Of a stretch of 64,000 nucleotides of DNA, positions 3,853-50,411 are shown in pieces (the stretch's first letter is position 1; every line of letters starts with the position of its first letter). The notes below the pieces were generated by a model. It was not told where the DNA came from. It ran no database searches and saw only the letters and a list, made by a program, of their open reading frames with translations. The stretch spans positions 27,450 through 91,449 of the IMG/VR virus record IMGVR_UViG_3300030085_002231; one strand, given 5' to 3'. The position numbers were made by a program, and so were the translations under genes. The stretch comes from a virus.

Positions 3853-3880
3853 AAAAATTTCAATTTAAGAAATAAATTTT

Positions 3881-3888
3881 TATAAATA
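3881..3888 (+). promoter_or_regulatory. T4-type late promoter TATAAATA
   Basis: Exact consensus, intergenic, upstream of gp68-gp21-gp22-gp23; gp55 sigma encoded in window. Confidence 0.85.
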
Positions 3889-3898
3889 ATATGGTAAA

Positions 3899-4111
3899 AT
3901 GAAAACTTTTACAAATATAAGAGAATTAACTGGACGTAAGCCTGAAGGACAATTAGTTGTCAATAAAAAATTAGGCAGAGTTCAGATAATGGTATACAAA
4001 GAACGTAACGGTTTTGTCACATACGTAGATGGTGACAGATTAGATCGTTATAGAAGTAAAAACGAAGCTGAAAAGGCTGGAACTGCATTTATTAAGGCGC
4101 TAAAGAAATGA
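3899..4111 (+). CDS. Small prohead core protein (gp68 position)
   Basis: Synteny; N-terminus MKTFTNIRE resembles the capsid targeting sequence. Confidence 0.6.
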   Translation: MKTFTNIRELTGRKPEGQLVVNKKLGRVQIMVYKERNGFVTYVDGDRLDRYRSKNEAEKAGTAFIKALKK

Positions 4112-4764: not shown

Positions 4765-4780
4765 CAAAGGAGTCAATTAA

Positions 4781-12428: not shown

Positions 12429-13022
12429 ATGGCACGCGCACAAAGAAAAAGTATTCACTATGTCAATAATGCTGAATTCTCACAAGCCGTAGTGGAATAT
12501 GTCACAAAAGTTCAAGAAGCTAAGAAACAAGAAACAACTCTTCCAATAGTACCTGATTATATTGCCAGCTGTTTTCTACGAATAGCTGAGGGTTTGTCTC
12601 ACAAATCTAATTTTATTCGCTACACATATCGCGAAGAAATGGTAATGGACGCAGTAGAAAATTGTTTGAAGGCGATTGAGAACTATAACTTAGAAGCGGC
12701 TACCAGAACTGGAAAGCCAAACGCTTTTGCGTACTTTACACAGATTACGTGGTACGCTTTTTTGAGACGTATCGCTAAAGAGAAAAAACAGCAAGATATT
12801 AAATTAAAATATTTGACAAAGTCAGGTATCGAAAACTTTATTGACAACGAGTTAGGTGACGAAACATCGCAGCAAGTTGTTGGCGCTTTCGTTGATACAC
12901 TACGAGATCGCATTGAGAAAGTAAGATTCACAGATAACATTATTAAAGAGGAAGTGATAAAAGAAAAGAAGAGGCGCAAGTCAAAGAGTGCTGATTCTGA
13001 TTTATCAGAGTTTTTAACATGA
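12429..13022 (+). CDS. gp55: Late transcription sigma factor
   Basis: HYVNNAEF, NFIRYTYREEMVMDAVENC, NAFAYFTQI..YAFLRRIAKEKKQ. Confidence 0.96.
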   Translation: MARAQRKSIHYVNNAEFSQAVVEYVTKVQEAKKQETTLPIVPDYIASCFLRIAEGLSHKSNFIRYTYREEMVMDAVENCLKAIENYNLEAATRTGKPNAFAYFTQITWYAFLRRIAKEKKQQDIKLKYLTKSGIENFIDNELGDETSQQVVGAFVDTLRDRIEKVRFTDNIIKEEVIKEKKRRKSKSADSDLSEFLT

Positions 13023-15958: not shown

Positions 15959-16636
15959 ATGGAACTAAATGAGAATACTCTCAACGTCTTGAAAAACTTT
16001 TCTGGTATCAATCAGAATATGTTGATTCAACAGGGCAGCACAATTAAAACTATTTCCGAAGCTCGCAATGTATTGGCCACAGCTGTGGTTGAAGAAGAGT
16101 TTCCACAACCTTTTGGCATCTATGATCTCAACGAGTTTATTGGTGTCCTTGGATTGGTAGATACACCTCGGCTTAAGTTTGCCGAAGAGTATGTTACCAT
16201 TGGCGACTCAACTGGTCGCTCAAAAGTCAAGTACTTCTTCTCACCAGAAGAAACATTGACAACCCCACAAAAAGATATTAACATGCCGGAAACGGAAGTT
16301 AAGTTTACACTAACAAACGATACTCTCAATAAAATTAAAAGAGCTGCATCCACTCTTGGACATGATGAAGTATTGATTACTGGCAAAGACGGTGTACTAA
16401 ATCTTTCTGTGGTTGAAAGCCAGAACTCAACGTCAAACGCGTTTACAATTGATATTGACGGTGAGTTTCCAGCTGAAACAAATTTTAACTTTATCTTGAG
16501 TATTTCAAATCTTAAGATTCTTACTGGTGACTATGATGTAGAAATATCGAGTAAGCTAATCTCTTGTTTCAAGCACAAAGATCTAAATGTCAAGTATTGG
16601 ATTGCACTTGAAAAAACCTCTTCGTACGGAGTTTAA
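15959..16636 (+). CDS. gp45: Sliding clamp
   Basis: LKNFSGINQ, FGIYDLNEF, YWIALE. Confidence 0.95.
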   Translation: MELNENTLNVLKNFSGINQNMLIQQGSTIKTISEARNVLATAVVEEEFPQPFGIYDLNEFIGVLGLVDTPRLKFAEEYVTIGDSTGRSKVKYFFSPEETLTTPQKDINMPETEVKFTLTNDTLNKIKRAASTLGHDEVLITGKDGVLNLSVVESQNSTSNAFTIDIDGEFPAETNFNFILSISNLKILTGDYDVEISSKLISCFKHKDLNVKYWIALEKTSSYGV

Positions 16637-21167: not shown

Positions 21168-23660
21168 ATGTTTTATACTTCAGTAGTACGTTACGGTAAT
21201 TCATTTCTGTATCGCGGCTATGACGCTGCCGGCAAACGCGTCTATAAAAAAGATTCCTTCTCACCAAGATTGTTCGTACCTTCCAAAGCCGAAACATCTT
21301 GGCGTGGTCTCGATGGCGCACCCATCGGGCCAGTAGATTTCAAAACAATGCGTGAATGTCGGCAATGGCTTGACCAATATCGTGAAGTTGGTGGCTTCGA
21401 TATTTACGGCAATCCTAATATGATCCAACAGTATATCGCTCATAAGTTTCCAAGAGATATTGAGTTTGATCGTGACATAATCAACGTCACCACAATCGAT
21501 ATTGAAACAGCGTATGAGGATGGATTCCCAGAACCAGAGAAAGCCAACCAAGAAGTTTTGGCTATCACCATCAAAAATAATATCGATGGCATATATCGTG
21601 TATGGGGCATGAAAGATTATGACGTTGGTTCTGCGCTTATACAACCAGTGCGTTATTATAAATGTAAAGACGAGGTTGACTTACTTCTAAAGTTTCTTGA
21701 CTTTTGGCATGACCATCGCAACACGCCTGACGTTGTGACAGGTTGGAATGTAAAGTTTTTTGATATACCTTATCTCGTTAATCGTGTAAACAACGTGCTT
21801 GGTGTAGACCAATGTAAAAAGTTCTCGCCTTGGGGTATGGTTGACTATTCAAAGATTGTCAAACGTGGTCGCGAACAAATCACATACAAACTGCAGGGCA
21901 TACAAACTTTGGATTACCTTGATCTTTTCCAAAAGTTTGGATATACCTATGGCACACAAGAATCTTATAAACTGAACCATATTGCGTACGTAGTTCTTGG
22001 CGAAAAGAAACTGTCCTTTGCCGAAGAAGGTTCTCTACGTAACCTATACAAAGAAGACTTCCAAAAGTATATCGACTATAATATGAAAGATGTACAGTTA
22101 GTTGATAAGCTCGAAGAAAAGATGGGGCTTATCACTCTGGCTATGACTGTGGCGTATAAAGGTGGTGTCAATTACCAAGATACATTTGGTGTGGTTGCAA
22201 TATGGGAATCAATCATATATCGTAAACTCAACTCACAAAAAGTTATGCCAAAGATCGAGCCTGATGAAATGGGCATACGTGATTTTGAAGGTGGCTACGT
22301 TAAAGAACCACAGGTTGGTATGCATGACTGGGTAGTTTCTTTTGATTTGAATTCTCTGTATCCTAATATTATTGTGCAGTGGAACATGTCACCAGAAACT
22401 TTGAACAAAGATCCACAACTTAACATGCCAAGCGGTGTACAAAACTACTTACACAAAGAAGAAAAACAAAACAGTAGTTATACTGTAGCAGCCAATGGTT
22501 CTACTTATCGTAAAGACTTTGATGGTGTGGTACCAAATATCATTGTAGATTATTACGATGAACGGAAGTCAGTTAAGAACATGATGATCGCTGCAGAAAA
22601 AGAATATCAAAAATCTAAAACACCAGAACTTGAAAGAGAAATCAATCGACTCACAAACCAGCAGATGGCGATTAAAATTCTTATGAACTCTTTGTATGGT
22701 GCGATCGGTAACAAACACTTTCGATATTATGATCTACGTATCGCCGAAGGTATTACACTTACCGGTCAGCTCGCAATCAAGTGGGCAGAAAATGCTGTTA
22801 ATGACGAGTTAAATAAAATACTTAAAACAGACGAAGACTATGTTATCGCAATGGATACAGATTCACTCTATATCAACTTTGGTCCTATGATTGAAAAGCT
22901 ACAGCCAAAAGATCCAGTAAAGTTTCTTGATAAGATATGTGTAGAACACTTTGAACCTGTGCTTGCCAAAGCTTATAATAAACTATTTAATGTAATGAAC
23001 TGCTACAAGCCACGTATGGAAATGGGCAGGGAAGTTATTGCGGATCGTGGTATATGGACAGCAAAGAAAAGATATATCCTCAATGTACATAACTCAGAAG
23101 GTGTACAGTACGCACAGCCTAAACTTAAGATCATGGGTATTGAAGCTATCAAGTCTTCAACACCGGAAGTATGCCGTGATAAATTCAAGCAAATATTCAA
23201 TGTGATTATTACTGGCTGTGAAAAAGACACGCAGAAGTTTATACAAGATTTTAAGAATGAGTTTAGGTCACTACCACCTGAACAGGTCGCCTTCCCGCGT
23301 TCTGTAACAAACATTACAGATTACAAAGATCGCAAGACGATATATAAGAAAGGTTCGCCTATTCACGTACGTGGTTCTTTAGTATATAACAAAGCACTCA
23401 AAGAATCTGGTATGATGCATAAGTATGAAGCAATCACAAACGGTAGCCGTATTAAGTTTGTCTATATGAAAAAGCCTAACCTGGTACGTGAAAACGTAAT
23501 TGCTTTTCCGGAAGTATTACCCGAAGAGTTCGGTGTAACACGTAACATAGACTATGACAAGCAATTCGAAAAAACTTTCTTGGAACCACTCGAGCTTATA
23601 CTCAACGCGGTTGGTTGGGATGCCGAAGAGAAAGTTACACTGGAAGATTTCTTTGCATAA
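21168..23660 (+). CDS. gp43: Family B DNA polymerase
   Basis: DIET exonuclease, SFDLNSLYP, KILMNSLYG, DTDS motifs; uninterrupted. Confidence 0.98.
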   Translation: MFYTSVVRYGNSFLYRGYDAAGKRVYKKDSFSPRLFVPSKAETSWRGLDGAPIGPVDFKTMRECRQWLDQYREVGGFDIYGNPNMIQQYIAHKFPRDIEFDRDIINVTTIDIETAYEDGFPEPEKANQEVLAITIKNNIDGIYRVWGMKDYDVGSALIQPVRYYKCKDEVDLLLKFLDFWHDHRNTPDVVTGWNVKFFDIPYLVNRVNNVLGVDQCKKFSPWGMVDYSKIVKRGREQITYKLQGIQTLDYLDLFQKFGYTYGTQESYKLNHIAYVVLGEKKLSFAEEGSLRNLYKEDFQKYIDYNMKDVQLVDKLEEKMGLITLAMTVAYKGGVNYQDTFGVVAIWESIIYRKLNSQKVMPKIEPDEMGIRDFEGGYVKEPQVGMHDWVVSFDLNSLYPNIIVQWNMSPETLNKDPQLNMPSGVQNYLHKEEKQNSSYTVAANGSTYRKDFDGVVPNIIVDYYDERKSVKNMMIAAEKEYQKSKTPELEREINRLTNQQMAIKILMNSLYGAIGNKHFRYYDLRIAEGITLTGQLAIKWAENAVNDELNKILKTDEDYVIAMDTDSLYINFGPMIEKLQPKDPVKFLDKICVEHFEPVLAKAYNKLFNVMNCYKPRMEMGREVIADRGIWTAKKRYILNVHNSEGVQYAQPKLKIMGIEAIKSSTPEVCRDKFKQIFNVIITGCEKDTQKFIQDFKNEFRSLPPEQVAFPRSVTNITDYKDRKTIYKKGSPIHVRGSLVYNKALKESGMMHKYEAITNGSRIKFVYMKKPNLVRENVIAFPEVLPEEFGVTRNIDYDKQFEKTFLEPLELILNAVGWDAEEKVTLEDFFA

Positions 23661-23665
23661 AGTGG

Positions 23666-23694
23666 TTTACTTTTACGATAAAATGGAGTATAAT
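23666..23694 (+). promoter_or_regulatory. Early/middle promoter
   Basis: TTTACT-17-TATAAT; ATG at 23702. Confidence 0.8.
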
Positions 23695-23701
23695 AGATAT
23701 T

Positions 23702-24124
23702 ATGAGTAAAGATTGGGTACAAGATATTAGTGACATGCATACCAAGTTTGGTGTGCGTAAGTGGGTCAATGAACAAATCCAGTTTGGTGAAAAAGAAAAA
23801 CTCGAAAAGTTTCTCGAGTTTCGTCTTAAATTCTTAGAAGAAGAACTCAACGAAACACGAGCTGCAGCAATTGTGGATAAAAATCCAGAAGAAATTGTTG
23901 ACGGTTTGATTGATCTGTGTGTTGTTGCCATTGGTACACTGGATGCGTTTGGAGTTGACGCTCACAAAGCATGGGATAAAGTACACAACGCAAACATGGC
24001 CAAAGAACCGGGTGTAAAAGAATCGCGCCCTAATCCACTTGGCCTGCCCGATCTGATTAAACCAGAAGATTGGAAGGGACCCGATCATCGTGACAACCAT
24101 GGATATTTCATTCACAGTCTTTAA
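23702..24124 (+). CDS. MazG/PRA-PH-like all-alpha NTP pyrophosphohydrolase (candidate dCTPase/dUTPase)
   Basis: EELNE...EEIVDGLID...VHNANMAK...DLIKP. Confidence 0.8.
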   Translation: MSKDWVQDISDMHTKFGVRKWVNEQIQFGEKEKLEKFLEFRLKFLEEELNETRAAAIVDKNPEEIVDGLIDLCVVAIGTLDAFGVDAHKAWDKVHNANMAKEPGVKESRPNPLGLPDLIKPEDWKGPDHRDNHGYFIHSL

Positions 24125-25878: not shown

Positions 25879-26269
25879 TTTACTACACGCCGGTCATATC
25901 GTTATGTTGCGTGAAGCAAAATCACAATGTGACTATTTAATATGTGCTTTGCAAGTTGATCCTACACTTGACCGTGCGACTAAGAACGCACCGGTCCAAA
26001 GTATCGTTGAAAGACAAGCACAACTCGCAGCAGTAAGTTACGTTGATGAAGTAATTATTTATTGTACAGAAGCTGATTTAGTTGATATAATAAACATGTA
26101 TCCAATTGATGTAAGAATACTCGGTGAAGAATATAGGCAGAAAGATTTTACTGGTAAAGATGAATGTCGTAATCGTGGCATACAGTTGTACTTTAACAAA
26201 CGTGACCACAGATTTTCATCAACAGATTTGAGAAAGAGAGTAGCAGATGCGAATGACAACCGTAAGTGA
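25847..26269 (+). CDS. Cytidylyltransferase (TagD/glycerol-3-phosphate type)
   Basis: STFDLLHAGH (HxGH), RDHRFSST. Confidence 0.88.
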   Translation: MKVGLTASTFDLLHAGHIVMLREAKSQCDYLICALQVDPTLDRATKNAPVQSIVERQAQLAAVSYVDEVIIYCTEADLVDIINMYPIDVRILGEEYRQKDFTGKDECRNRGIQLYFNKRDHRFSSTDLRKRVADANDNRK

Positions 26270-26924
26270 TATTAGAAAACATTTTATTGGAGAACTAAAA
26301 GATGAAGCCTTCACCACAGACAAAACTGGACAAAACACAATTGAGTTGCTTGGCGCTTCATTTCTTGCAGACGAGCCAGCAATCTTTGGAGATCCAAACG
26401 ATGCGTACATCCGAAGCGAAATTGATTGGTACCTTAGTGGTAGTACTAATATCAATGACATTTATCGCTGGCCTGATCACCCTAGTGATAAACAACCCCC
26501 AGCTGCTTGGCAGCTTGCTGCAAATGAACATGGCGAAATAAACTCTAACTATGGTCGATTGATTTTTAGTGATATATATTATAGACAGTACGATAACGTA
26601 CTTACAGAGTTGACAAATTGGCCTGACTCTCGTAGAGCGTCAATGATTTATCAAAGACCGTCTATATGGATAGAGTATACAGAAAATGGTAAAGGTGATT
26701 TCATATGTACTAATGCTGTCACTTATTATATACGCAATGATGAACTACAGTCAGTGGTCCAAATGCGCTCAAACGATGTCGTGTTCGGATACAAAAATGA
26801 CTATGCTTGGCAGCAGTATGTTCTAGAACAACTTGCAAACGATCTTAATATCAAACCAGGTTTTATAACTTGGCAAGTTCAAAATCTTCACGTTTACGAA
26901 AGACACTTCAACCTTGTTAAATAA
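26247..26924 (+). CDS. gp42: dCMP hydroxymethylase (thymidylate synthase family, gp42-like)
   Basis: YIRSEIDWY, INSNYG, SRRA, DFICTN (catalytic Cys), QMRSNDVVFGYKNDYAW with the dCMP-specifying Asp, LHVYERHF. Confidence 0.88.
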   Translation: MRMTTVSDIRKHFIGELKDEAFTTDKTGQNTIELLGASFLADEPAIFGDPNDAYIRSEIDWYLSGSTNINDIYRWPDHPSDKQPPAAWQLAANEHGEINSNYGRLIFSDIYYRQYDNVLTELTNWPDSRRASMIYQRPSIWIEYTENGKGDFICTNAVTYYIRNDELQSVVQMRSNDVVFGYKNDYAWQQYVLEQLANDLNIKPGFITWQVQNLHVYERHFNLVK

Positions 26925-27387
26925 ATGGGACATGCGATACCTTGCACTCGCAGAAGAAGTAGCACAGTGGTCGAAAGATCCATCCACTAAGATTGGTGCT
27001 ATTGCTGTAGGTAAGAAAGGTCAAGTCTTATCACAGGGTTACAATGGGTTTCCACGTGGTATCGAAGACAAAGTAGAATACTATCAAGATCGTGAAACAA
27101 AATATAAGTACGTAGTACACGCAGAAATGAATGTCATATATAATGCTACATATCATGGTGTTTGTTTAGAAGGCACAACACTATACGTTACAGGTTTACC
27201 CGTTTGTTCTGATTGTGCAAAGGGTATCATACAAGTCGGCATTACAAGAGTAGTAATGAAAGAAAGACTAACACCACAAAAGTGGGTAGACTCATGGAAG
27301 ACTACATCTAAAATGTTTGACGAAGCAAATGTTAAATGGGAGTTTATCAATGTCAGCAACACAGGAATGGTTGAAACAAAAGTTTAG
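26914..27387 (+). CDS. cd: dCMP deaminase
   Basis: SKDPST, GYNGFPRG, HAEMN, PVCSDC. Confidence 0.92.
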   Translation: MLNKWDMRYLALAEEVAQWSKDPSTKIGAIAVGKKGQVLSQGYNGFPRGIEDKVEYYQDRETKYKYVVHAEMNVIYNATYHGVCLEGTTLYVTGLPVCSDCAKGIIQVGITRVVMKERLTPQKWVDSWKTTSKMFDEANVKWEFINVSNTGMVETKV

Positions 27388-27559
27388 AGAAGACGCTGGT
27401 CTAGTAGCTTACAGCAATACTCGATTAACTGAAGAAATAGAAGATCTAAAAGAAAGATTAAAAAAGGTAGAAACTGACATGGCATATACACAGAAGATTA
27501 GATTTGCTCAAAGTCCTGAAGAGCAAAGGATAAATGATATAAGGAACGTAGTAGATTGA
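27350..27559 (+). CDS. Hypothetical coiled-coil protein
   Basis: GGGAG RBS; 69-aa ORF. Confidence 0.5.
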   Translation: MSATQEWLKQKFREDAGLVAYSNTRLTEEIEDLKERLKKVETDMAYTQKIRFAQSPEEQRINDIRNVVD

Positions 27560-27924
27560 TTTTAGTTGTTGGTCATAGTCCTTCTTCTAAAGAGTATTGT
27601 CCGAAGAAAGGCAATCCTTCTATCAACCGTCTTAACAGGTGGCTCGATGCATGTGGTGTGGATATATACAGCTTTACTAACCTGTGTGCACACCACAGTG
27701 AGTCTATCAAAGCAGCAGATATTGATGAAACATTAATAAAAGAATGTGTAAAACCTTATAATAAAGTAATAGCTTTAGGTAATGAAGTAGCACATTATTT
27801 CAAGAAAAAAGGTATCGATTGCTTTCATGCACCTCACCCATCTCCACGTAACAGGAAGTTTAACGACAAAAGTTACGAATCAACTGTAATTAATGGTTTA
27901 CAAAAGTACATACATATGATATAA
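27556..27924 (+). CDS. Minimal uracil-DNA-glycosylase-fold protein
   Basis: VVGHSPS, FTNL, IALG..., PHPSPRNR. Confidence 0.7.
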   Translation: MILVVGHSPSSKEYCPKKGNPSINRLNRWLDACGVDIYSFTNLCAHHSESIKAADIDETLIKECVKPYNKVIALGNEVAHYFKKKGIDCFHAPHPSPRNRKFNDKSYESTVINGLQKYIHMI

Positions 27925-27925
27925 T
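27897..27925 (+). promoter_or_regulatory. Early/middle promoter (agt operon)
   Basis: TTTACA-17-TATAAT. Confidence 0.75.
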
Positions 27926-27956: not shown

Positions 27957-29180
27957 ATGAAAATTGTACATATACTTGGCCGCGGCATTGAAGGTTGCGG
28001 CGTAACTCGATTTACACTTGAGTTAAAAGACTGGGCACTAAGCCAAGGTTGGAATTATACAGTATACGCACCAACCGATAAGAAATGGACACGTGCTTCA
28101 TCACACTATCTAGATGAAAATATTAAACAATGGAAGTGGGGAAACAAGCCCGCCCGCGGAGACACACGTTGTGGCACTGAATCGATTATAGAAGATTGTA
28201 ATAAGTCAGATTTAGTTCTTATTGGTTCACTGCCATCTAAAGGCCACCCAGATGATTGTATAGAAAATTTTGGTAAGTTAATTGAAGGAATCAAAACTAA
28301 AAAAGTTATGATTCAACACGACCACAAGATGATGTCAATCAGACGCAATGCATTGCTAGACGATGTGATTCAATCAGCCGACGTTATCTTTTCGTATTCT
28401 ACTAAAAGTCCTTTTATGGATTACTGTAAAAAGATTGGTGCCAAAGGAAACATGTTTAACTTCTGCAATGGAGTTAACGTACAAAGAATACGTGATGAAT
28501 ACTGGAAACCTATCGAAGAACAAGACCCTGATCATTTAAAATGGATTGGACGGTCTGCATATTGGAAAGGTTTCGATGTACTATTTGATTTACATAAAAG
28601 TACTAAAGGTACTAACTTACTATACACACTTGAAGGAATGGAAAAGTCAATACAGTTCGTAGATATACGTAAAGCTTTTGACTTCCACGAAATGGCTGAA
28701 GAGTTTGATGTAGAAACAAAGCACGGCGAAAAACCTTATGTCTTTGGTGCGTTCAAACATAGTGAAATGTTAGAACGTATGTCACGCTGTGGCTTTGGTT
28801 TTCAGCTGACAACTCTTCAGCCAGAATATATACAGAACTTTATTGAGTTCACACACCTAGAAATCGTAGCGTGTGGTGTAATACCAATTTTTAGAAAAGC
28901 TTTTGGTGATCACTGTACACACCTGCAAACTGGCAATAAACTAACTGCCGATAAAAACACCGGTACTATATGGGCAGGTGAAGTAGGTACAGATTGGAGT
29001 GAAACTATTGAACTCATAAATAAACTTAGATCAGATAATGTAATGCGTAACGAATGGCGTGAAATGGCTTATGAATATTATGCATCACACAACGGGCCGG
29101 ATGTATCGTTTCCTGATATATTCAATAAGATTGATAAACCGGCTGAAGGTCCATCCGACTTGTCTGAATTCTTTGGTTAG
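27957..29180 (+). CDS. DNA alpha-glucosyltransferase (T4 AGT) homolog
   Basis: N-terminus GRGIEGCGVTRFTLE...DK..TR..SH matches T4 AGT (ARGLEGCGVTKFSLE); QHDH, WIGR..WKG, EFTHLEIVACG. Confidence 0.85.
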   Translation: MKIVHILGRGIEGCGVTRFTLELKDWALSQGWNYTVYAPTDKKWTRASSHYLDENIKQWKWGNKPARGDTRCGTESIIEDCNKSDLVLIGSLPSKGHPDDCIENFGKLIEGIKTKKVMIQHDHKMMSIRRNALLDDVIQSADVIFSYSTKSPFMDYCKKIGAKGNMFNFCNGVNVQRIRDEYWKPIEEQDPDHLKWIGRSAYWKGFDVLFDLHKSTKGTNLLYTLEGMEKSIQFVDIRKAFDFHEMAEEFDVETKHGEKPYVFGAFKHSEMLERMSRCGFGFQLTTLQPEYIQNFIEFTHLEIVACGVIPIFRKAFGDHCTHLQTGNKLTADKNTGTIWAGEVGTDWSETIELINKLRSDNVMRNEWREMAYEYYASHNGPDVSFPDIFNKIDKPAEGPSDLSEFFG

Positions 29181-29189
29181 GAGTATAAA

Positions 29190-30140
29190 ATGAAAATATG
29201 TATTACAGGTGGCGCAGGTTTTATTGGCTTTCACTTAGCACAGAAATTACGTAAAGAAGGACACGGGGTATTTGGTTTTGATAACTTCAATAGTTACTAT
29301 GATGTAGACTTAAAAAGAAAACGTGCTGAAATTCTTGAAAGTCTTGGCATTCACATTGAGCCATTGGATTTACGTGTTAGAAGTAAATTAATAGAATATT
29401 TAGATCAAATCAGACCTGATGTTATAATGCACTTAGCAGCCATGGCTGGTGTTAGACACTCCATGGATGATCCAACAGCTTACGTTGATAACAATATTCT
29501 AGGTACACATAACCTTATCGAAGCCTGTGACCTTGTTGGTATTGAAAAAGTAGTGTATGCTTCTACGTCTTGTGTTATGGCTGGCAATCCACTTCCGTGG
29601 AATGAAGAAGAAAAGTTAGGTGTTGCAAAGAACCCATACGGATATTCTAAAGCTACTAATGAAGCACAGTTTATTTCTTCTAAAATCGATTCAACAATTG
29701 GCTTAAGATTCTTTACTGTCTATGGTCCTTGGGGTAGACCAGATATGGCGCTGTTCGATTTTACGAAAAGTATTATAGAAGAAAAACCTATTAAGCTTTT
29801 TAATAATGGTGATATGGTTCGCGACTTTACTTACGTTGATGATATTGTACAGGGCGTAGGTCTTGTCATAGATAGAATAAATGAAAAGTCAGACATTAAC
29901 GAGATTTATAATATTGGCTATGGACAGCAAGTACAACTTATGGAATTTGTAAAACACATAGAACAAAACTTAGATAGGGAAGCTATCAAAGAATACGTAC
30001 CTATGCACCCAGCCGATACACATAAAACTTGGTCTGACACAAGTAAAATAAGACAACTCGGATATTCACCTAAAACTCCAATAGGTAGAGGTGTATACGA
30101 GTTTGTTCAATGGTACAAGGATTATTATCATGTCAATTAA
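29190..30140 (+). CDS. UDP-glucuronate 4-epimerase-like extended SDR
   Basis: GGAGFIG, HLAAMAGVRHS, YGYSK, LRFFTVYGPWGRPDMA, RDFTYVDDIV. Confidence 0.88.
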   Translation: MKICITGGAGFIGFHLAQKLRKEGHGVFGFDNFNSYYDVDLKRKRAEILESLGIHIEPLDLRVRSKLIEYLDQIRPDVIMHLAAMAGVRHSMDDPTAYVDNNILGTHNLIEACDLVGIEKVVYASTSCVMAGNPLPWNEEEKLGVAKNPYGYSKATNEAQFISSKIDSTIGLRFFTVYGPWGRPDMALFDFTKSIIEEKPIKLFNNGDMVRDFTYVDDIVQGVGLVIDRINEKSDINEIYNIGYGQQVQLMEFVKHIEQNLDREAIKEYVPMHPADTHKTWSDTSKIRQLGYSPKTPIGRGVYEFVQWYKDYYHVN

Positions 30141-30957
30141 TATTGCAATCATAGGTCATGGATACGTAGGTAAAGCAGTAGATCATGGCTTCTCTACGAG
30201 TCAAGTTTCAAAGTATATTGTAGATCCAATATATGGGTCTCCAACTATCGAAGATCTCGTTGGTAAGATTCGTTTGCATGCAGCATTTGTTTGTGTACCT
30301 ACACCATTTGGTGATGATGGAAAGATTGATGCTTCTATAGTTAAAGATTCAGTACGTAAATTATCTGGTGCAATGTGTCCTATCGTTGTAAAGTCTACTA
30401 CTACACCTGACGTTATCGAAGAACTTTATTTAGAAAACGAAAACGTAATTTACAACCCAGAGTTCTTGACAGAAAAGAATGCTTTACACGATTTTATCAA
30501 TCCACCAATGCATGTACTTGGTGGTAAGAGGCAGTACACTAATAAAGTATTAGAACTATATGAAAACTACTCGCAGTGTACACCATGTCCAGCATACCAC
30601 ATGACTGCAAAAGAGGCATCCTTTGTAAAGTATGGAATCAATTCATTCTTAGCGAGTAAAGTTCTGTGGTTCAACCAATTTAAGGATGTGGTTGAAAAAT
30701 GGGATGCTAAGTATAACGTAATTGTTAATGCAATAGGTACTGATCCACGTATTGGACACAGTCACACACAAGTACCTGGTCCTGATGGACGTAAAGGTTT
30801 TGGTGGTGCTTGTTTTCCAAAAGATACGAATGCGTTTTGTGCCTTTTCTGATGGAGACCTACCTGTACTTAAAAAGATTATTGAGGAAAACAATAAATAC
30901 AGAAGTCAATATGAACTCGATGATCGTGAAAAAGAACAGAAAGTAAGTTATGAATAA
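30130..30957 (+). CDS. UDP-glucose/GDP-mannose 6-dehydrogenase (short form)
   Basis: IGHGYVG, CVPTP, KST, NPEFL, KY..NSFLA.K, GFGGACFPKD. Confidence 0.88.
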   Translation: MSINIAIIGHGYVGKAVDHGFSTSQVSKYIVDPIYGSPTIEDLVGKIRLHAAFVCVPTPFGDDGKIDASIVKDSVRKLSGAMCPIVVKSTTTPDVIEELYLENENVIYNPEFLTEKNALHDFINPPMHVLGGKRQYTNKVLELYENYSQCTPCPAYHMTAKEASFVKYGINSFLASKVLWFNQFKDVVEKWDAKYNVIVNAIGTDPRIGHSHTQVPGPDGRKGFGGACFPKDTNAFCAFSDGDLPVLKKIIEENNKYRSQYELDDREKEQKVSYE

Positions 30958-32146
30958 TTATGCGAGTATTATACCACTTATTGGCGGTGAAACAATCGCC
31001 ATGCAAAACGTATTTAAGAAAAAACCGGAGTATATTTTAAGCTATGAACCGTTTAAAGCAAACGATACTCACCTTGTTGAGTACTATCAACGAAAAGTTC
31101 CCTACCATCTGTTGGGAGATAACGGGGTGGACAACCTACCTAGTGTCGATGTTGTTAATACCGTATGTCCTTGTGCTGGGCTTAGCAGTCTTAGTACTAC
31201 AGCATCTACTGATTCTGCTGCTAACGATTGGATGCCTACCACAGCTCGTTATGTTTTGGGTACACTCCAACCTCGAGTATTCTGGGGCGAAAACGCACCA
31301 AGACTCGCTTCAGCAATGGGACGACCTATTGTCGAAAGTCTCCGCGAAATCGGTAAAGAGTTTGGATACACTTTCAGCATTTTTAAAACGAAGTCTATCC
31401 TTCATGGATTGAGTCAAGTCAGGGACAGAACGTTTTATTTCTTTTGGAAAGGTGATAAAGTACCAGTCTTTGAATATATAAAAAGGGAACACGAAAAAAT
31501 AGAAGACACGATACGTTCCGTGAAACGTGATCCACAGGATCCAATGAATGTACTTACTAATAAACGTGTTCCTACAGAAGACCCGTTCTATCGATACATT
31601 TTAGAAGAACTAGAAAATAATATTAGTCATACAGATTTTCAAAATAAGATACAAAAATCTTATGATGTCTTGTGGTACATAGAACAACACGTTACCTATG
31701 ATAAAGTTGCAAAGTGGATGGACAAGAATGGCTTTATAAAAAAAGCTGAACGCTGTCGTACAATGTTTGACAAATTAAAAGCTGGCGGTAACGTAATGAG
31801 AAGAGGTGTGTACATACCGAAAGATTATATAGGTGCCTTTGTTGGAGCACTACCTACAATGTGCACACACCCAGATGAAAATAGATTTTTAACTATTAGA
31901 GAATGTTTAAGTATTATGAAATTACCTTCTGATTTTGTATTACAAGGTGGCCTTAAAAATTTAAATCACATATGTCAAAACGTACCTGTCACTACTGCAA
32001 TGGATATGGCAGAACACGTATTAAAATATCTTGATGGCAGACTTGATAATAGGATGATCGATACAGATTACTTAGTACAAGATAATAAGAATATGACATT
32101 GAATTACAAAAAAGACAGTGTACAACTTGACGCTTTTATGGTATAA
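30950..32146 (+). CDS. C5-cytosine DNA methyltransferase-fold protein with degenerate SAM motif I
   Basis: PC (VCPCAGLS), ENAP, QVRDR, RFLTIRE...P.DF, QNVP; motif I reads IPLIGG instead of FxGxGG. Confidence 0.75.
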   Translation: MNNYASIIPLIGGETIAMQNVFKKKPEYILSYEPFKANDTHLVEYYQRKVPYHLLGDNGVDNLPSVDVVNTVCPCAGLSSLSTTASTDSAANDWMPTTARYVLGTLQPRVFWGENAPRLASAMGRPIVESLREIGKEFGYTFSIFKTKSILHGLSQVRDRTFYFFWKGDKVPVFEYIKREHEKIEDTIRSVKRDPQDPMNVLTNKRVPTEDPFYRYILEELENNISHTDFQNKIQKSYDVLWYIEQHVTYDKVAKWMDKNGFIKKAERCRTMFDKLKAGGNVMRRGVYIPKDYIGAFVGALPTMCTHPDENRFLTIRECLSIMKLPSDFVLQGGLKNLNHICQNVPVTTAMDMAEHVLKYLDGRLDNRMIDTDYLVQDNKNMTLNYKKDSVQLDAFMV

Positions 32147-37756: not shown

Positions 37757-38053
37757 ATGCTAACTAAAATGAAAGATTTTATTTCATGGAATCCAAAACA
37801 TTTAGCAGAGGCTGAAGTTGTAAAATCTCGTGCTTTAAGAAATGAAAAAGGTGGATATTGGTGGCATGCAAAATTAGCTTTTAAAGAAGCTGGTTTTTCG
37901 CTTATCATGTCTATTGGATGGTTTCTACACGCATTATTACCATGGTTATTCGACTTCAAACTTTTAGAAGCACAAGTGGATAGATTAAGAATGATTTCAA
38001 GAATTTTACCTGATCTACCGCTGTTCAAGAAAGTTAAGTTTCTTAAAAAATAA
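37757..38053 (+). CDS. DUF6356-like small membrane protein, copy 1
   Basis: HL.E...Y..H...A...HALLPWLF. Confidence 0.55.
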   Translation: MLTKMKDFISWNPKHLAEAEVVKSRALRNEKGGYWWHAKLAFKEAGFSLIMSIGWFLHALLPWLFDFKLLEAQVDRLRMISRILPDLPLFKKVKFLKK

Positions 38054-38727
38054 TGTACCCTGTAAGTGAAGGGCGTATTACCTTTTCAAGTGGAACTACT
38101 AATACGCCTAAAAAAATTTGGCATCCTAAAGATAAACTTAATTTAACGTCTGAGGTTTATAAAAGAACACACAACTTAGACGCTTCTTCACGCATATTAA
38201 ACTTTATGCCACGCTATCACATAGGTGGATTAGCTTTGGAATTAGCAGGTCAATATGTAGGTGCTAGTGTTACAAATATAGAATTTAACGCATATAATTT
38301 TTTAGATCAACTTGACGATTACAGCCACACAATGCTGCCTGATTCATCAATAAGTGCATTGAGAAAAACTAAAAAATTTAATGATTATAATTTCAAAGAT
38401 AAGTTTTTGCATTGTGGAACTGAACCACATAAGAAAGAAAATATTCTTTCATTAGTAGAAAGAGGCGGTACAGCATTTTGTAACTGGGGAATGACAGAAA
38501 TAGGTCCAATCTGTATTCATACTACATTTAAACCGTATGATACTGAAAGAGTAGAAAAATATTTTAAACCAGGATTTTTACTAGGTGATAATTTTGAAAT
38601 AGAATGGAAAACAGATTCAGATGAATTAGTAGTGAGAAGTGAGATGTCAATATACAAAGATTGGTTTTATACAGGTGATATTGTAAAGTTCGTAGATGGA
38701 GCTTTGTACTATGTCAAAAGAAGATAA
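38053..38727 (+). CDS. Minimal adenylate-forming (acyl-CoA synthetase-like) enzyme
   Basis: FSSGTTNTPK (A3), WGMTE (A5), FYTGD (A7); lacks the N-terminal part and the C-terminal subdomain. Confidence 0.75.
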   Translation: MYPVSEGRITFSSGTTNTPKKIWHPKDKLNLTSEVYKRTHNLDASSRILNFMPRYHIGGLALELAGQYVGASVTNIEFNAYNFLDQLDDYSHTMLPDSSISALRKTKKFNDYNFKDKFLHCGTEPHKKENILSLVERGGTAFCNWGMTEIGPICIHTTFKPYDTERVEKYFKPGFLLGDNFEIEWKTDSDELVVRSEMSIYKDWFYTGDIVKFVDGALYYVKRR

Positions 38728-39283
38728 TTACTTTGTAAGTCAAGATTTTGACAAATATGATTTAGATAGATTTATGTCTATATGTAATAAGTTAGGTTAC
38801 AAAAACAATATATCTAGAAAAGCAATGAAGATTGACTGGGTGCGTAAAAACTTTGGTGACTTTTGGGCTTTTGTAAAAAATGATAAAATAATTGCGGTAT
38901 CCGGATGTCACCCGTTTCCAGATTTAAACGACACATATAGAATAGGATTCAGGGCTGCACAATTGCCAGGTGAAGATCCTTTCATAGGATTATCTAAGTA
39001 TGGATATAACTCTATTTCTATAAGAGTCTTATTGCAATATCAAATAAAATTTTGTGAAACAATTGGAATAGATAATTTTATATTGACAACGAATTCAAAA
39101 AGTACTGGTCACTTATACATGTCGCATATGATGCAGGTACAAATAAATAAATGTACAAATTTAACTGAGTACTTAGGTGAAAAAATGCTATACGGTGTAA
39201 ATCAATCATTGTGGAAATATAATATTAATGAATATAAAAAATCGATATTAAGATTAAAACCAGAGAAGTATTACATTATATGA
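38711..39283 (+). CDS. GNAT-like acyltransferase, copy 1
   Basis: KIIAVSGC, R...QLP, FILTTN; paralog of 42206-42793; fold call is inference. Confidence 0.55.
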   Translation: MSKEDNYFVSQDFDKYDLDRFMSICNKLGYKNNISRKAMKIDWVRKNFGDFWAFVKNDKIIAVSGCHPFPDLNDTYRIGFRAAQLPGEDPFIGLSKYGYNSISIRVLLQYQIKFCETIGIDNFILTTNSKSTGHLYMSHMMQVQINKCTNLTEYLGEKMLYGVNQSLWKYNINEYKKSILRLKPEKYYII

Positions 39284-40101
39284 AAAAGCTTATGATTGTT
39301 GGAGGTGACAGCTACACTGATCCTAATTTTGGTATATACAAAAAATTTAACATATCGCCTTGGCCTACACATTTGGCTAAACTAAATAATTATGATATGA
39401 TTAATACTGCTACAGGTGGTTCTAGTAATAGACATATTTTCAATTCAGTAGTTGATGCCATTATTGATAATCAACATAGAGAAATGATAGTCGTGACAGC
39501 TTGGTCTGAATTATATAGACTATCATTTATTGATGATGTTGATCTTGATAGTACAATATGGTTATTCAGTGATAAAGAACATAAATTTAGATGCACATTA
39601 TCTGAAGGTCTTAAAAAATATTTTACTAGAATAAATCCTTTAAGAAAAGAATATATTAAACTTATAAAAGATAAGTGTATTGACCAGAAAGAATTTGATA
39701 GTAAGTTAATATCGCAATCATTTAAAAATATTTGGTTATTACAAGATTTCTGTAAAAATAGAAATATACCTATGTATCATTTTCATACGTATGATCCATT
39801 AGCATATGATTATAGCCTATCAGTACAAATTTATGGTGATGTAGAAAAATCTTTGTATGAAAACATTTATCTTACATATGTAGAAAAAGATGAAAACTAT
39901 GTAGGACATGACTATTGCTTGTATAATGATATAGAAAAAAATAAATATTTTATTAAGAATGGCGATATTACGAATCTACACGCAAATCAAGAAGGTCATA
40001 TACATATAGCTGAAAAAATAAGTAAGTTTATAAAAGATGGTGTAAGACCTGAGTCTAATATTGAAGAACACGGTGAGCTTTATAGGATAATAAGAAAATG
40101 A
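39280..40101 (+). CDS. SGNH/GDSL hydrolase-like protein
   Basis: GGDSYT, WP..L, GGSSN, HANQEGH. Confidence 0.7.
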   Translation: MKKLMIVGGDSYTDPNFGIYKKFNISPWPTHLAKLNNYDMINTATGGSSNRHIFNSVVDAIIDNQHREMIVVTAWSELYRLSFIDDVDLDSTIWLFSDKEHKFRCTLSEGLKKYFTRINPLRKEYIKLIKDKCIDQKEFDSKLISQSFKNIWLLQDFCKNRNIPMYHFHTYDPLAYDYSLSVQIYGDVEKSLYENIYLTYVEKDENYVGHDYCLYNDIEKNKYFIKNGDITNLHANQEGHIHIAEKISKFIKDGVRPESNIEEHGELYRIIRK

Positions 40102-41534
40102 ATCCTTTCTATACACTATTGCCTACAGATAGGCCAGCAATCAGCGATATTCATCAGACAATAACATATAAGCAACTTATATCTGAAGCCATAAAAATAA
40201 GAGATTGGTTTTCATCGATGGGTTATAAACGAGGCCATCGTATAGGAATTGCTGGTCAGCAAAGTATAGAGACATACAAATACTTTCTTGCAGCCTGGAT
40301 GATTTCATCTGCTGTAGGGCTTAGAATTGATCAAAAACAAAATGATTGGAATCATAAAATTCCTGCAAGTAATTTAAATGTAGTTATAGAACTAGCAGAT
40401 GAAGTTTTAGTACATCACAAACATTTTGATAAATCTATTGAGTGCCCTAAAGAATTTGCTACATACTTTAGTTCAGGAACTACAAGTAATAATTGGGCAC
40501 AAGCTCAGTCGACTCCTATGGTTTGGGAAATTGACGAGTATAACTGGGGGCAAAGCTTAGATGTAAATCATTATTGTCGTGCAATCGCAAACCCATGTGT
40601 ACATGAACCATCGAAGAATATTCAAATACAAGTTATGCAACCTTGGATTACATGGGGACAAGAAATGGTTGCTTACAATCTAATACATCAAGGGCATGTC
40701 ATTTTAGTAAATGAAATTCAAGAGTGGGATATTTTATTAAGAAGGTTTAAACCAACGTGGACTGTAATGTTTCCTATGATAGCTTTTAGATTAATGGAAA
40801 AAAATACGGGTGCTAATCATAAGCTAGATTGCGTAGAGATGTCAGGTGTACGTCCAACTATGAATCAAATAAATGATATGAAAAAGTTTTTCAATTGCGA
40901 TTATTTTACATCACACTATGGAACATCACAGGCTGGTAATGTAAGTTACAATAGTGGTGATGGAAAAAACTTACAACATATAGGAAAAGTATGCGATGGA
41001 TTTATACATGCCTTTGGAGAAGATATGCACCGTATAGGTAAAAATGGAACTATGGAGATAAAGTGGCCAGCAAATCCACCTACAATGTTAAATGAAGATG
41101 GATACTATGATACTAACGACATAGTTGAATTAGGTCATGATGGTAACTATCATTTTCTAGGTAGAGCTAATGAAATGCTTATGATACGTGGTGGATCAAA
41201 GTTCCAGGCGCCAAGTGTCGAAGATAGACTTATGGAAAATATTAATATAAAAGAAGCGTACATATATCCAATACCTGATCCTAACATAAACGAAAAAGGA
41301 TCACTATTTCAAATACCCGGTTGTCTATATTATGGTGAAATAACAGTAGATGAAGTTAAAGAATACTGCGATCAGCAACTACCACCTTATATGAGACCTA
41401 TACAGATTCATAAACTAAAGAATAAACTTTCTACATTTACTGATGAATCTGTATGGAAAGTTCGTAGACTACATATGCATGATTCCTTATTGGAGAATAA
41501 AGATGAATGGTGCTCATCTTCTTATTATCAATAG
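40098..41534 (+). CDS. Adenylate-forming enzyme (acyl-CoA ligase family)
   Basis: ITYKQL, FSSGTT, HYGTSQ, YYDTNDIV, FLGRANE, LPPYMRP. Confidence 0.8.
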   Translation: MNPFYTLLPTDRPAISDIHQTITYKQLISEAIKIRDWFSSMGYKRGHRIGIAGQQSIETYKYFLAAWMISSAVGLRIDQKQNDWNHKIPASNLNVVIELADEVLVHHKHFDKSIECPKEFATYFSSGTTSNNWAQAQSTPMVWEIDEYNWGQSLDVNHYCRAIANPCVHEPSKNIQIQVMQPWITWGQEMVAYNLIHQGHVILVNEIQEWDILLRRFKPTWTVMFPMIAFRLMEKNTGANHKLDCVEMSGVRPTMNQINDMKKFFNCDYFTSHYGTSQAGNVSYNSGDGKNLQHIGKVCDGFIHAFGEDMHRIGKNGTMEIKWPANPPTMLNEDGYYDTNDIVELGHDGNYHFLGRANEMLMIRGGSKFQAPSVEDRLMENINIKEAYIYPIPDPNINEKGSLFQIPGCLYYGEITVDEVKEYCDQQLPPYMRPIQIHKLKNKLSTFTDESVWKVRRLHMHDSLLENKDEWCSSSYYQ

Positions 41535-42793: not shown

Positions 42794-42953
42794 TTATATA
42801 AAACATTTCAAATACGCAATGTATTATAACTTCTTAGCTTTGATGGTGTTCATTACAGGCATGATACATGCATTTATACCATTTTTATTTCCGTACTTAC
42901 CTTATGAATTAGCAAAGAAGATTACTGATGGGACAGAAAAAAACTTTAAATAA
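42750..42953 (+). CDS. DUF6356-like small membrane protein, copy 2
   Basis: HLQD...YIKHFKYA...IHAFIPFLF. Confidence 0.6.
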   Translation: MNILEFKHLQDTKSNYIKHFKYAMYYNFLALMVFITGMIHAFIPFLFPYLPYELAKKITDGTEKNFK

Positions 42954-43458
42954 TTATTTTGAAAAAGAATGGAAACCAAACTATGATTCAAAAAGTTATT
43001 CAGGATGGAAATTAATCGATAAAGTAAAAAGCAACGAAACTATATTAGATATTGGTTGTGGATATAATTTATTTAAAGAACATTTTTCTAAAAACTTATA
43101 TGGCATAGATCCTGCTAATGATGCTGCAGATGAAAGAGTTAGTATTGAAGAGTTTAATAGTGCAGGCAACCAATGGGATGTTATATTTTGCTTAGGTAGT
43201 TTGAATTTTGGAGATGAATCTGTGGTTAAGCCACAAGTTGAAAAAGCAGTATCATTATGTAAAAGTGGTGGTAGAATATATTGGAGACAGAATCCTGGAT
43301 TAGGTGATCACCCGTGGAAAGGTGTTGAGGAAATTAAGTTTTTCCCATGGTCAGAAGAATTGAACTATCAGTGGTCTAAGGAGTTTGATTGCCGAGTTGT
43401 CTTTATGGATTGGGAACCAAAGGGCAATAGATTATATGCAGAATGGGTTAAGAATTGA
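42928..43458 (+). CDS. Class I SAM-dependent methyltransferase
   Basis: ILDIGCG, GID, WDVIFCLGS, KSGGRI. Confidence 0.85.
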   Translation: MGQKKTLNNYFEKEWKPNYDSKSYSGWKLIDKVKSNETILDIGCGYNLFKEHFSKNLYGIDPANDAADERVSIEEFNSAGNQWDVIFCLGSLNFGDESVVKPQVEKAVSLCKSGGRIYWRQNPGLGDHPWKGVEEIKFFPWSEELNYQWSKEFDCRVVFMDWEPKGNRLYAEWVKN

Positions 43459-50400: not shown

Positions 50401-50411
50401 TGGAAAAGGTA

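Follow-up and report, generated by a model that had tools for sequence, protein, structure and literature searches.

What use has a marine T4-like phage for a protein with the fold of a cytosine-C5 methyltransferase, when the same phage appears equipped to make hydroxymethylcytosine (hmC)? The question is raised by the open reading frame (ORF) at 30950-32146 of the window, the 64,000-nt stretch of DNA analyzed here, which spans positions 27,450-91,449 of the 91-kb record IMGVR_UViG_3300030085_002231 (~52% complete). The first-pass annotation placed this gene within an hmC operon, and that operon is real: homologs of the T4-type dCMP hydroxymethylase (gp42) and of the DNA alpha-glucosyltransferase (AGT) are both present (Table 1). 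Few DNA enzymes are as well understood as the cytosine-C5 methylases, whose side reactions on hmC in the absence of cofactor serve as laboratory tools. The product of ORF 30950-32146 probably acts on newly made phage DNA, and it is probably no ordinary methylase.

Table 1. Genes, motifs and signals considered in the text, in positions of the window
Feature	Position	Strand	Remarks
Late sigma factor gp55	12429..13022	+	second reference clamp tail, DLSEFLT
gp45 sliding clamp	15959..16636	+	putative partner for the tail to dock on
Family B DNA polymerase (gp43)	21168..23660	+	reference clamp tail, TLEDFFA
MazG-like nucleotide pyrophosphohydrolase	23615..24124	+	candidate dCTPase
dCMP hydroxymethylase, T4 gp42 type	26247..26924	+	E 4e-67 to PDB 1b49; catalytic Cys and dCMP-specifying Asp179 kept
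dCMP deaminase	26914..27387	+	
Mini UDG-like ORF	27556-27924		four genes upstream of the methyltransferase-like gene; 22.2 bits, under the Pfam cut-off of 24.3
Best sigma-70-like promoter match	27897..27925	+	TTTACA-17-TATAAT, 11/12, with TG; precedes the four-gene unit AGT, epimerase, UGDH-like, methyltransferase-like
DNA alpha-glucosyltransferase (AGT) homolog	27957..29180	+	E 6e-65 to T4 AGT; extra C-terminal tail DLSEFFG
NAD-dependent sugar-nucleotide epimerase/dehydratase (SDR)	29190..30140	+	
UDP-glucose-dehydrogenase-like (UGDH-like) protein	30091..30957	+	288 aa; C-terminal UDP-binding domain missing
C5-cytosine-methyltransferase-fold protein, PL[IV]GG family	30950..32146	+	398 aa; open frame; from its ATG on, shares 8 nt with the end of the upstream gene
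Motif I variant IIPLIGG	30968..30988	+	aa 7-13, replacing FxGxGG; near-invariant in 129 representatives
Motif IV CPCAGLS	31166..31186	+	aa 73-79, catalytic Cys75; Ala76 at the canonical Gln position; aligned to HaeIII PPCQSWS
Motif VI GENAP	31286..31300	+	aa 113-117, Glu114; Ala116 at the canonical Val position
Motif VIII QVRDR	31415..31429	+	aa 156-160; Arg158 and Arg160 family-invariant
Motif IX RFLTIRE to motif X QNVP	31883..31987	+	aa 312-318 to aa 343-346
C-terminal tail QLDAFMV	32123..32143	+	putative gp45 sliding-clamp binding motif

The ORF matches PF00145 with an E of 8e-17 (62.1 bits against a Pfam cut-off of 22), a match that begins only at residue 37, and it scores below the curated cut-off of NCBIfam dcm (TIGR00675; 30.2 vs 100.65 bits). 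An AlphaFold2 model of the 398-residue protein (pLDDT 94.6) was aligned by VIA-align with M.HaeIII (1dct; Z 26.0, rmsd 3.1, 279 residues aligned) and with M.HhaI (Z 25.8, rmsd 3.4, 296 residues aligned, with model residues 1-367 lying on HhaI 11-326); as modeled, the product is a two-domain C5-cytosine methyltransferase fold. Motifs IV, VI and VIII had been annotated as intact, and they are: they read CPC with Cys75, ENAP and QVRDR, and vary little or not at all in the PL[IV]GG family, which was sampled through 129 representatives sharing no more than 50% identity with one another. Cys75 is present in 128/129 and Glu114, Arg158 and Arg160 in 129/129 each, in sequences down to 30% identity, and the recognition domain is kept throughout the family. 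Two substitutions lie within these motifs, Ala76 replacing Gln in 106/129 representatives and Ala116 replacing Val in 123/129, and together they would free space next to C5. In motif IV, the engineered forms of M.HhaI and M.SssI likewise have Ala for Gln.

While this catalytic half is kept, the half that would hold the cofactor has been remodeled. Motif I does read IIPLIGG, as the first-pass annotation had noticed, but its description as degenerate was mistaken, PL[IV]GG being a conserved derived motif and not the product of decay. Conservation among homologs had been set beforehand as a check, and in the 129 representatives Pro9 (125), Leu10 (124), Gly12 (126) and Gly13 (123) are near-invariant. 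Provided that no gap falls within the first 13 residues, superposition places I8-P9-L10-I11-G12-G13 on HhaI residues 18-23, which we take to be F-A-G-L-G-G; the position of the motif I Phe is aromatic in 0/129 sequences, and that of the first Gly is Leu in 124/129. Only 33/129 (26%) have an acid where strand 2 ends, the motif II residue that binds the ribose, and the family profile aligns with solved methylases only from about residues 40-55 on. The likely adenine contacts are conserved, namely F35 (122/129), an acid at 56 or 57 (111/129), W94 (107/129) and N344 (123/129), and the protein studied here retains both E33, the motif II acid, and D57. Because F35, the acid at 56/57 and W94 are largely kept, SAM could still be bound; to our knowledge, nearly all characterized members of PF00145 use SAM or a SAM derivative. 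Judged from these alignments, the PL[IV]GG family has a rebuilt methyl-donor site, new in form and conserved.

Loci were found with a hand-made, family-specific degenerate DNA pattern (W-M ... ENAP ... HGxPQxRxR), and their contexts were taken from IMG/VR. More than 120 viral contigs matched this pattern, whereas 185,579 species genomes gave only 9 matching contigs. Each of these comes from a MAG, several also have phage genes, and no restriction-modification context was seen around them. ESM Atlas matches were confined to viral ‘DNA methylase’ clusters. By its sequence matches, the family appears restricted to phages. A megablast of phage records gave no match, a literature search found no description of the family, and neither the MetaGPA paper nor the 5-hydroxycytosine paper mentions such a methylase.

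A link to gp42-type genes, the other point singled out for checking, was found across distant phage lineages. A thymidylate-synthase homolog accompanies the gene in 66 of the 80 loci having at least 4 kb of upstream sequence, at a median distance of 2.8 kb, and 92 of 93 linked homologs have Asp at the position of T4 gp42 Asp179. Asp-type homologs were also present in all four complete genomes checked (4/4), and Pseudoalteromonas phage XG4 likewise has one. Frequent occurrence in phages that have no hmC genes, a pattern that the first-pass annotation had regarded as contrary to its reading, was not encountered; the apparent exception, cyanophage S-TIM61, encodes a ‘ThyA’ whose dCMP-specifying residue is Asp, together with a Pfam-significant AGT homolog. 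Wherever testable, the family travels with a thymidylate-synthase homolog of predicted dCMP (Asp) type, a linkage that could largely reflect one module inherited among related marine T4-like phages. A gp42 search of the whole records of four further loci, records only 8-15% complete, gave no match, and T-even phages make hmC without a gene of the PL[IV]GG type.

Within these loci the methyltransferase-like gene is the constant member beside very different cassettes, which contain AGT, a TAGT-type transferase or a kinase-like protein. This constancy argues against a reaction bound to one specific hmC adduct, and action on residual unmodified cytosine fits it at least as well as non-methyl chemistry does. 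In the 91-kb record, neither dinucleotide nor tetranucleotide statistics revealed a telling avoidance (CpG 0.84, CCGG 1.65).

The end of the protein suggests where it may act. An L-x-x-F-[FLM] ending is found in only 4 of 320 ORFs, those of gp55, gp43, AGT and the methylase look-alike itself. Across loci, such tails occur on 142/197 methyltransferase-like proteins, 19/21 polymerases and 39/56 AGT-like proteins, vs 55/1333 other ORFs, and the type of tail on the methyltransferase-like protein agrees with that of the polymerase or the transferase in the same locus. The occurrence of this putative clamp-type tail, L-x-x-F, in common on the methylase look-alike, gp43, gp55 and AGT is new here, and it points to recruitment of the ORF 30950-32146 product by the gp45 sliding clamp. 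A complex prediction with three copies of gp45 and residues 345-398 scored 0.56; one unrelated control scored 0.59.

We propose that the protein is an active, phage-specific enzyme of the cytosine-C5-methyltransferase fold, which would flip a cytosine from the DNA and attack its C6 with Cys75. Its gene would invariably come last in a DNA-modification cassette that follows an enzyme modifying the C5 of dCMP before replication, here the gp42-type hydroxymethylase, while the protein itself would be loaded via the gp45 clamp onto newly replicated phage DNA and act after replication. The reaction would not be classical SAM methyl transfer; rather, the Cys-C6 adduct would serve other C5 chemistry, which might put a C5 substituent on cytosines that escape hydroxymethylation, for example by hydroxymethylation at the DNA level, or might exchange or remove the hydroxymethyl group of hmC. 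We put the probability of non-classical C5 chemistry on nascent phage DNA by an active, clamp-loaded protein of this fold at roughly one half. The first-pass annotation had suggested either non-methyl C5 chemistry or protection of residual cytosine, and this is borne out in part: conservation of PLIGG and linkage to gp42 speak for it, while the largely kept adenine contacts, and with them the possible binding of SAM, speak against the non-methyl option. A bolder version, which we advance only tentatively, is that this is the first natural C5-methyltransferase-fold enzyme to have abandoned classical SAM methyl transfer, a clamp-riding enzyme whose Cys-C6 adduct hydroxymethylates stray cytosines with a non-SAM one-carbon donor or substitutes the hydroxymethyl group of hmC.

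Much of this evidence could also describe an ordinary SAM-dependent cytosine-C5 methyltransferase in which motif I has merely diverged, and which guards against restriction as a back-up, by methylating either some short motif or the few unmodified cytosines that get past the dCTPase. Such an enzyme would have the full set of intact catalytic motifs, pass the Pfam cut-off and keep the likely adenine contacts (F35, D56/57, W94, N344, and E33 in the present protein) as well as the recognition domain; a gene constant next to variable cassettes and a clamp tail suited to scanning nascent DNA agree with it too, and one family member has a CXXC zinc finger, a domain that binds unmodified CpG. It sits poorly, however, with a motif I in which Leu takes the place of the first Gly in nearly all members and the Phe position is never aromatic, with the loss of the ribose-binding acid in about three quarters of the family, and with an NCBIfam dcm score far under the cut-off. 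Moreover, the family was not found in cellular restriction-modification contexts, and an ordinary methylase offers no obvious reason for confinement to phages with Asp-type thymidylate-synthase homologs. We consider it rather unlikely.

Loss of the cofactor could have had a different consequence. C5 methylases deprived of SAM deaminate cytosine to uracil in vitro, and a cofactor-less enzyme might do the same through the Cys-C6 dihydrocytosine adduct, on host DNA or on mis-incorporated cytosine, with uracil excision then leading to repair or degradation, possibly by the UDG-like protein. The rebuilt SAM site, the mostly immune status that hmC DNA would enjoy and the conservation of the mini UDG-like ORF, which most marine T4-like relatives have in their cassettes, all agree with such a conversion. 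Simple cofactor loss, however, would not predict a strictly conserved new pocket, the known deamination is a slow side reaction, and the clamp tail indicates phage rather than host DNA; the UDG-like match is under the Pfam cut-off and appears to have few counterparts among distant members. This conversion appears quite improbable. Scarcely credible, in turn, is a non-catalytic base-flipping DNA binder, such as a shield or sensor of hmC DNA, in which the fold is merely retained: an altered cofactor site and a tail positioning the protein on DNA would suit it, but the Cys nucleophile, the ENxP Glu and both motif VIII Arg residues, needless for mere binding, are invariant or nearly so down to 30% identity.

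The preferred reading, non-classical C5 chemistry by an active enzyme, can be set against known systems. With M.HhaI and M.HaeIII (PF00145) the family has in common the two-domain fold and motifs IV, VI, VIII, IX and X; it differs in PL[IV]GG for FxGxG, in the unconserved motif II acid and in the Gln-to-Ala and Val-to-Ala changes. Unlike bacterial and phage C5 methylases, it is without a restriction partner, apparently phage-only and clamp-tailed. CmoX (PDB 8YF3; PMC12783734) is a phage C5-methylase homolog repurposed for a non-methyl C5 group, and is a structural match to the model (Z 24.1). CmoX has the canonical SAM contacts Phe25, Glu47/Phe48 and Asp69, Arg350 in motif X, and an SPPC motif (PMC12783734), whereas the protein studied here has Asn344 in QNVP, CPC instead of SPPC and the rebuilt motif I. 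No match to CmoA was found in the 64-kb window of this ~52% complete record; the one trace, in ORF 42928-43458, was CmoB-like and scored 15.7 bits. With no motif X Arg, no SPPC and no CmoA match in the window, identity with CmoX/CmoA was rejected.

In the phage methyltransferase, TET/5mYOX and glycosyltransferase pathway (PMC8256090), too, a gene of C5-methylase type lies next to DNA glycosyltransferases within a locus for cytosine hypermodification. There, hmC arises from 5mC after replication and a dioxygenase is required (PMC8256090), while here hmC would be pre-replicative, through the gp42-type enzyme; a TET/JBP search of five records gave no match, control genomes being equally silent. 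The chemistry itself has precedents. As the first-pass annotation stated, cofactor-free reactions of C5 methyltransferases are established in vitro: eM.SssI couples thiols to hmC, M.HhaI with formaldehyde makes hmC, and dehydroxymethylation without SAM has been reported (PMC7176277, PMC11347137). The covalent chemistry proposed for ORF 30950-32146 is the same; that of the engineered M.HhaI and M.SssI, however, is a laboratory side reaction of SAM enzymes. We know of no natural enzyme dedicated to such SAM-free C5 reactions.

In a large and abundant family of marine phage enzymes, a catalytic half that is kept, a cofactor half that is rebuilt and a tie to pre-replicative C5 modification of dCMP suggest that nature may already use this chemistry. 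They may also reveal an unrecognized need, the handling of unmodified cytosines in otherwise fully modified genomes. A clamp-riding, non-SAM C5 enzyme, if that is what the gene encodes, would represent a cytosine modification not described until now, or a step of ‘modification proofreading’, and might supply new enzymes with which to map hmC or label DNA.

Tethering of a DNA-modifying or DNA-reading enzyme to a clamp by a short hydrophobic tail is familiar from DNMT1-PCNA and from T4 gp43 and gp55 with gp45; the difference is that clamp binding of the ORF 30950-32146 product is deduced from its motif. The clamp tail is also found on glycosyltransferases of several families and on the kinase-like enzyme, and its presence on several modification enzymes suggests a principle whereby phage DNA hypermodification may be coupled to the replisome.

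The window, the 3' 64 kb of a 91,449-bp IMG/VR record with a completeness estimate of 52%, comes from a marine T4-like phage, whose gene set includes gp20 portal, gp23 capsid, UvsW, gp55, gp47/46, gp45, gp44, gp43, UvsX, a gp41-like helicase and ThyX. The first-pass annotation had placed a C5-methylase-fold protein in an hmC operon, and this context is borne out by a gp42-type dCMP hydroxymethylase and a homolog of the T4 DNA alpha-glucosyltransferase (AGT). Near these two genes are a MazG-like pyrophosphohydrolase, a DUF1599 protein, a small nucleotidyltransferase, a dCMP deaminase, an SDR epimerase and a UDP-glucose-dehydrogenase-like protein. Because the best sigma-70-like promoter match of the region stands at the head of the glucosyltransferase gene, no plus-strand terminator-like site was found between that gene and the methylase-like gene in a search reaching to the end of the latter, and the methylase-like ATG overlaps the 3' end of the preceding gene, the methylase-like gene is the last of a four-gene unit.

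Features of the window and the C-terminal tails of their products
Feature	Position	Strand	Remarks
gp55 late sigma factor	12429-13022	+	tail DLSEFLT
gp45 clamp gene	15959-16636		
gp43 polymerase	21168-23660	+	tail TLEDFFA
dCMP hydroxymethylase (T4 gp42 type)	26247-26924	+	E 4e-67 to T4 enzyme; catalytic Cys and dCMP-specifying Asp kept
Mini UDG-like ORF	27556-27924	+	122 aa; motifs GHSPS ... HPSPRN
Best sigma-70-like promoter match of region	27897-27925		11/12, with TG; directly ahead of glucosyltransferase gene
DNA alpha-glucosyltransferase homolog	27957-29180	+	E 6e-65 to T4 AGT; tail DLSEFFG, on an extension without T4 AGT counterpart
Terminator-like site	28781-28793	+	sole plus-strand site of the four-gene unit; within glucosyltransferase gene
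UDP-glucose-dehydrogenase-like protein	30091-30957	+	288 aa
Methylase-like protein	30950-32146	+	398 aa; tail QLDAFMV
AMP-binding (acyl-CoA-ligase-type) enzyme pieces	38053-41534	+	middle part 38053-38727; N- and C-terminal parts 40098-41534
TctA-family tricarboxylate transporter subunit and OpuAC-type glycine-betaine-binding protein	43455-44888 and 50400-51377	+	

The UDP-glucose-dehydrogenase-like protein aligns with positions 78-296 of a model 413 positions long and so lacks the C-terminal UDP-binding domain; close relatives have this short form too, at 97% conservation. This protein and the adjoining epimerase suggest that the sugar donor of the glucosyltransferase homolog is a uronic acid or a pentose. 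The mini UDG-like ORF scores 22.2 bits against Pfam UDG, slightly below the cut-off, and most marine T4-like relatives keep it at this place, directly after the dCMP deaminase gene.

Structure matching (Foldseek, VIA-align) of an AlphaFold2 model based on 44 members of the family (mean pLDDT 94.6) places the methylase-like protein firmly among the C5-cytosine methyltransferases. The Z scores were 26.0 to M.HaeIII, 25.8 to M.HhaI and 24.1 to the phage C5-carboxymethyltransferase CmoX (8YF3), with residues 1-367 of the model superposed onto HhaI 11-326. All motifs named earlier were found (IIPLIGG at residues 7-13, CPCAGLS at 73-79, GENAP at 113-117 and QVRDR at 156-160), together with RFLTIRE at 312-318 and QNVP at 343-346. 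The Pfam DNA_methylase match (E 8e-17) starts only at residue 37, alignment of the family profile with solved methylases begins only at about position 40-55, and the NCBI dcm model gives 30 bits, below its cut-off of 100.65.

When 1.84 billion cluster representatives were searched exhaustively with HMMER, 246 clusters matched at E < 1e-30; a word-index search returned 2,028 proteins, many of which came from marine sampling, Tara included. In an alignment of 129 full-length representatives, the altered motif I is itself conserved (P9 in 125, L10 in 124, G12 in 126, G13 in 123), an aromatic residue never occupies the motif I Phe position (0/129), and just 33 retain the acid that ends strand 2 and canonically contacts the ribose. 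Catalytic residues are close to fixed: none of the 129 lacks E114, R158 or R160, 128 have C75, and N115, Q156, Q343 and N344 vary hardly at all. Conservation also extends to F35 (122), W94 (107) and an acidic residue at position 56 or 57 (111). The catalytic half and the cofactor half are thus both under strict selection, the latter for something different, and motif I, described as degenerate in the first-pass annotation, reads from this alignment as rebuilt. Beside the target C5, Ala76 replaces the Gln of HaeIII and MET1 and Ala116 their Val, both smaller than the canonical residues; in engineered M.HhaI and M.SssI the Gln-to-Ala replacement serves to create room. Four long PL[IV]GG members, on 2-5-kb contigs from metagenomes or metatranscriptomes, bear eukaryote-looking tails: a zf-CXXC domain scores 29.7 bits in P0199, C2H2-like fingers occur with K/E-rich stretches in P0158 and P0178, and P0184 reaches 1462 aa.

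Among 50,697 phage records, tblastn matched only Pseudoalteromonas phage XG4, five S-TIM5-type cyanophage records (four phages) and, with a weak hit, Bacillus phage G; the T-even phages in this set have no methylase-like gene. A family-specific degenerate DNA pattern matched at least 120 IMG/VR contigs, and only nine contigs, all from MAGs, in single genomes of 185,579 prokaryotic species. Several of the nine also bear phage genes, such as polB, UvsX, gp42 and dCMP deaminase, and none showed restriction-modification neighbours; therefore, no such context was seen for the family.

In 200 viral loci the methylase-like gene lies a few kb downstream of gp42-like and dCMP deaminase genes. Eighty loci extend 4 kb or more upstream, and 66 of them have a thymidylate-synthase homolog, with a median distance of 2.8 kb; split by percent identity with the window protein, the counts were 29/29 at 60% or above, 29/31 at 40-60% and 8/20 below 40%. 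Whole-record searches found one in 8/10 further records, including 4/4 complete genomes. Asp occupies the T4 gp42 Asp179 position in 92 of 93 homologs, divergent 270-320-aa subfamilies included, and the remaining one is an ordinary ThyA alongside an Asp-type enzyme. Cyanophage S-TIM61, where no gp42-like match was found, is an apparent exception. Its 'ThyA' (L002:6769-7605, minus strand), 2.4 kb from the methylase-like gene, reads GVPLDMF versus GVPFNIA in ThyA, with Asp at the dUMP-specifying Asn; Liu and Santi in 1992 reportedly turned thymidylate synthase into a dCMP enzyme by this Asn-to-Asp change. S-TIM61 also has a Pfam-significant AGT homolog (L005:1288-2568), and from these two genes S-TIM5-type cyanophages probably modify cytosine at C5. 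Given this linkage and the two S-TIM61 genes, the pattern that the first-pass annotation had named as refuting its proposal, homologs being common in phages without hmC genes, is not seen.

T4 gp43 and gp55 bind the gp45 sliding clamp through short C-terminal tails. In a six-frame scan of the 91-kb record, only four of the 320 ORFs 50 aa or longer ended in L-x-x-F-[FLM]: gp43, gp55, the glucosyltransferase and the methylase-like protein. Across the viral loci the strict motif was found on 142/197 methylase-like proteins, 19/21 polymerases and 39/56 AGT-like proteins, and on just 55/1333 other ORFs, many of those listed lying directly upstream of the methylase-like gene. A Pfam scan of ten tail-bearing ORFs identified, among others, a TET-associated-type glycosyltransferase, a 5-hmdU-DNA-kinase-like protein and, below cut-off, GT-B-like proteins. 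Other lineages have a second tail type, -LF, similar to the beta-clamp motif of bacteria; in locus L155 the methylase-like protein and the transferase both end in it in place of the polymerase-type tail. The window and the viral loci L091, L097, L098, L108, L112 and L199 show the putative polymerase-type clamp tail on modification-cassette enzymes generally: AGT-like and TAGT-type glycosyltransferases, GT-B-like proteins and 340-420-aa proteins directly upstream of the methylase-like gene. We infer that the entire cassette, the methylase-like enzyme included, may be tethered to the sliding clamp and act on new phage DNA.

In locus L097, a clamp-tailed protein (3367-4539, plus strand) matches the 5-hmdU DNA kinase helical domain PF18723 at 44 bits and is followed by a 377-aa clamp-tailed protein (4520-5653) and the methylase-like gene from 5656. 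This relative has a gp42-type hydroxymethylase, and its cassette hints at phosphorylation-activated hypermodification of hmC, which to our knowledge has so far been known only for hmU.

The methylase-like enzyme should still be able to flip cytosine out, with Cys75 adding to C6. C5 methylases without SAM can, in vitro, convert cytosine and formaldehyde to hmC, remove hydroxymethyl groups and couple thiols to hmC (PMC7176277, PMC11347137). We propose a non-classical reaction at C5, with a probability of about 0.5, because motif I is rebuilt yet conserved and the ribose acid lost, because there is extra room next to C5, because the family is apparently phage-restricted, and because it is strictly associated with pre-replicative C5 modification. 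The earlier suggestion of non-methyl chemistry or protection of residual cytosine thus stands in part: PLIGG conservation and the pre-replicative link hold, and the chemistry itself is about an even bet. The main rival is appreciably less probable: the protein would be a genuine SAM methylase whose motif I is unusual and whose target is residual cytosine, and the conserved F35, D56/57, W94 and N344 could still accommodate the adenine. A cofactor-less C-to-U deaminase paired with the small UDG-like protein is a slim possibility, and a non-catalytic binder is more unlikely still. The non-classical reaction could take two forms. The unchanging presence of the gene next to widely differing cassettes and the CXXC zinc finger on one family member favour a mop-up enzyme, which would give stray unmodified cytosines a C5 group; the enlarged C5 pocket favours the alternative, action on hmC itself.

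The closest known natural repurposing of the C5-methylase fold is CmoX (PMC12783734), which keeps all SAM contacts and has an Arg in motif X, whereas the methylase-like protein has neither; CmoA, the Cx-SAM synthase, was not detectable in the window. In the methyltransferase-TET-glycosyltransferase route (PMC8256090) hmC is made after replication, in contrast to the window phage, where it is made before. A literature search found no paper describing the PL[IV]GG family, and there is a realistic chance, though short of even, that this protein would represent a truly new DNA-modifying activity. The present analysis adds the rule that the linked thymidylate-synthase homologs are Asp-type, the S-TIM5 case, the apparent absence of the family from cellular genomes and the putative clamp tail found across the cassette. 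Elsewhere in the window, the pieces of the AMP-binding enzyme lie in non-collinear order on two or more ORFs, with two hitless ORFs between, and the TctA-family and OpuAC-type genes are unusual auxiliary genes for a phage.
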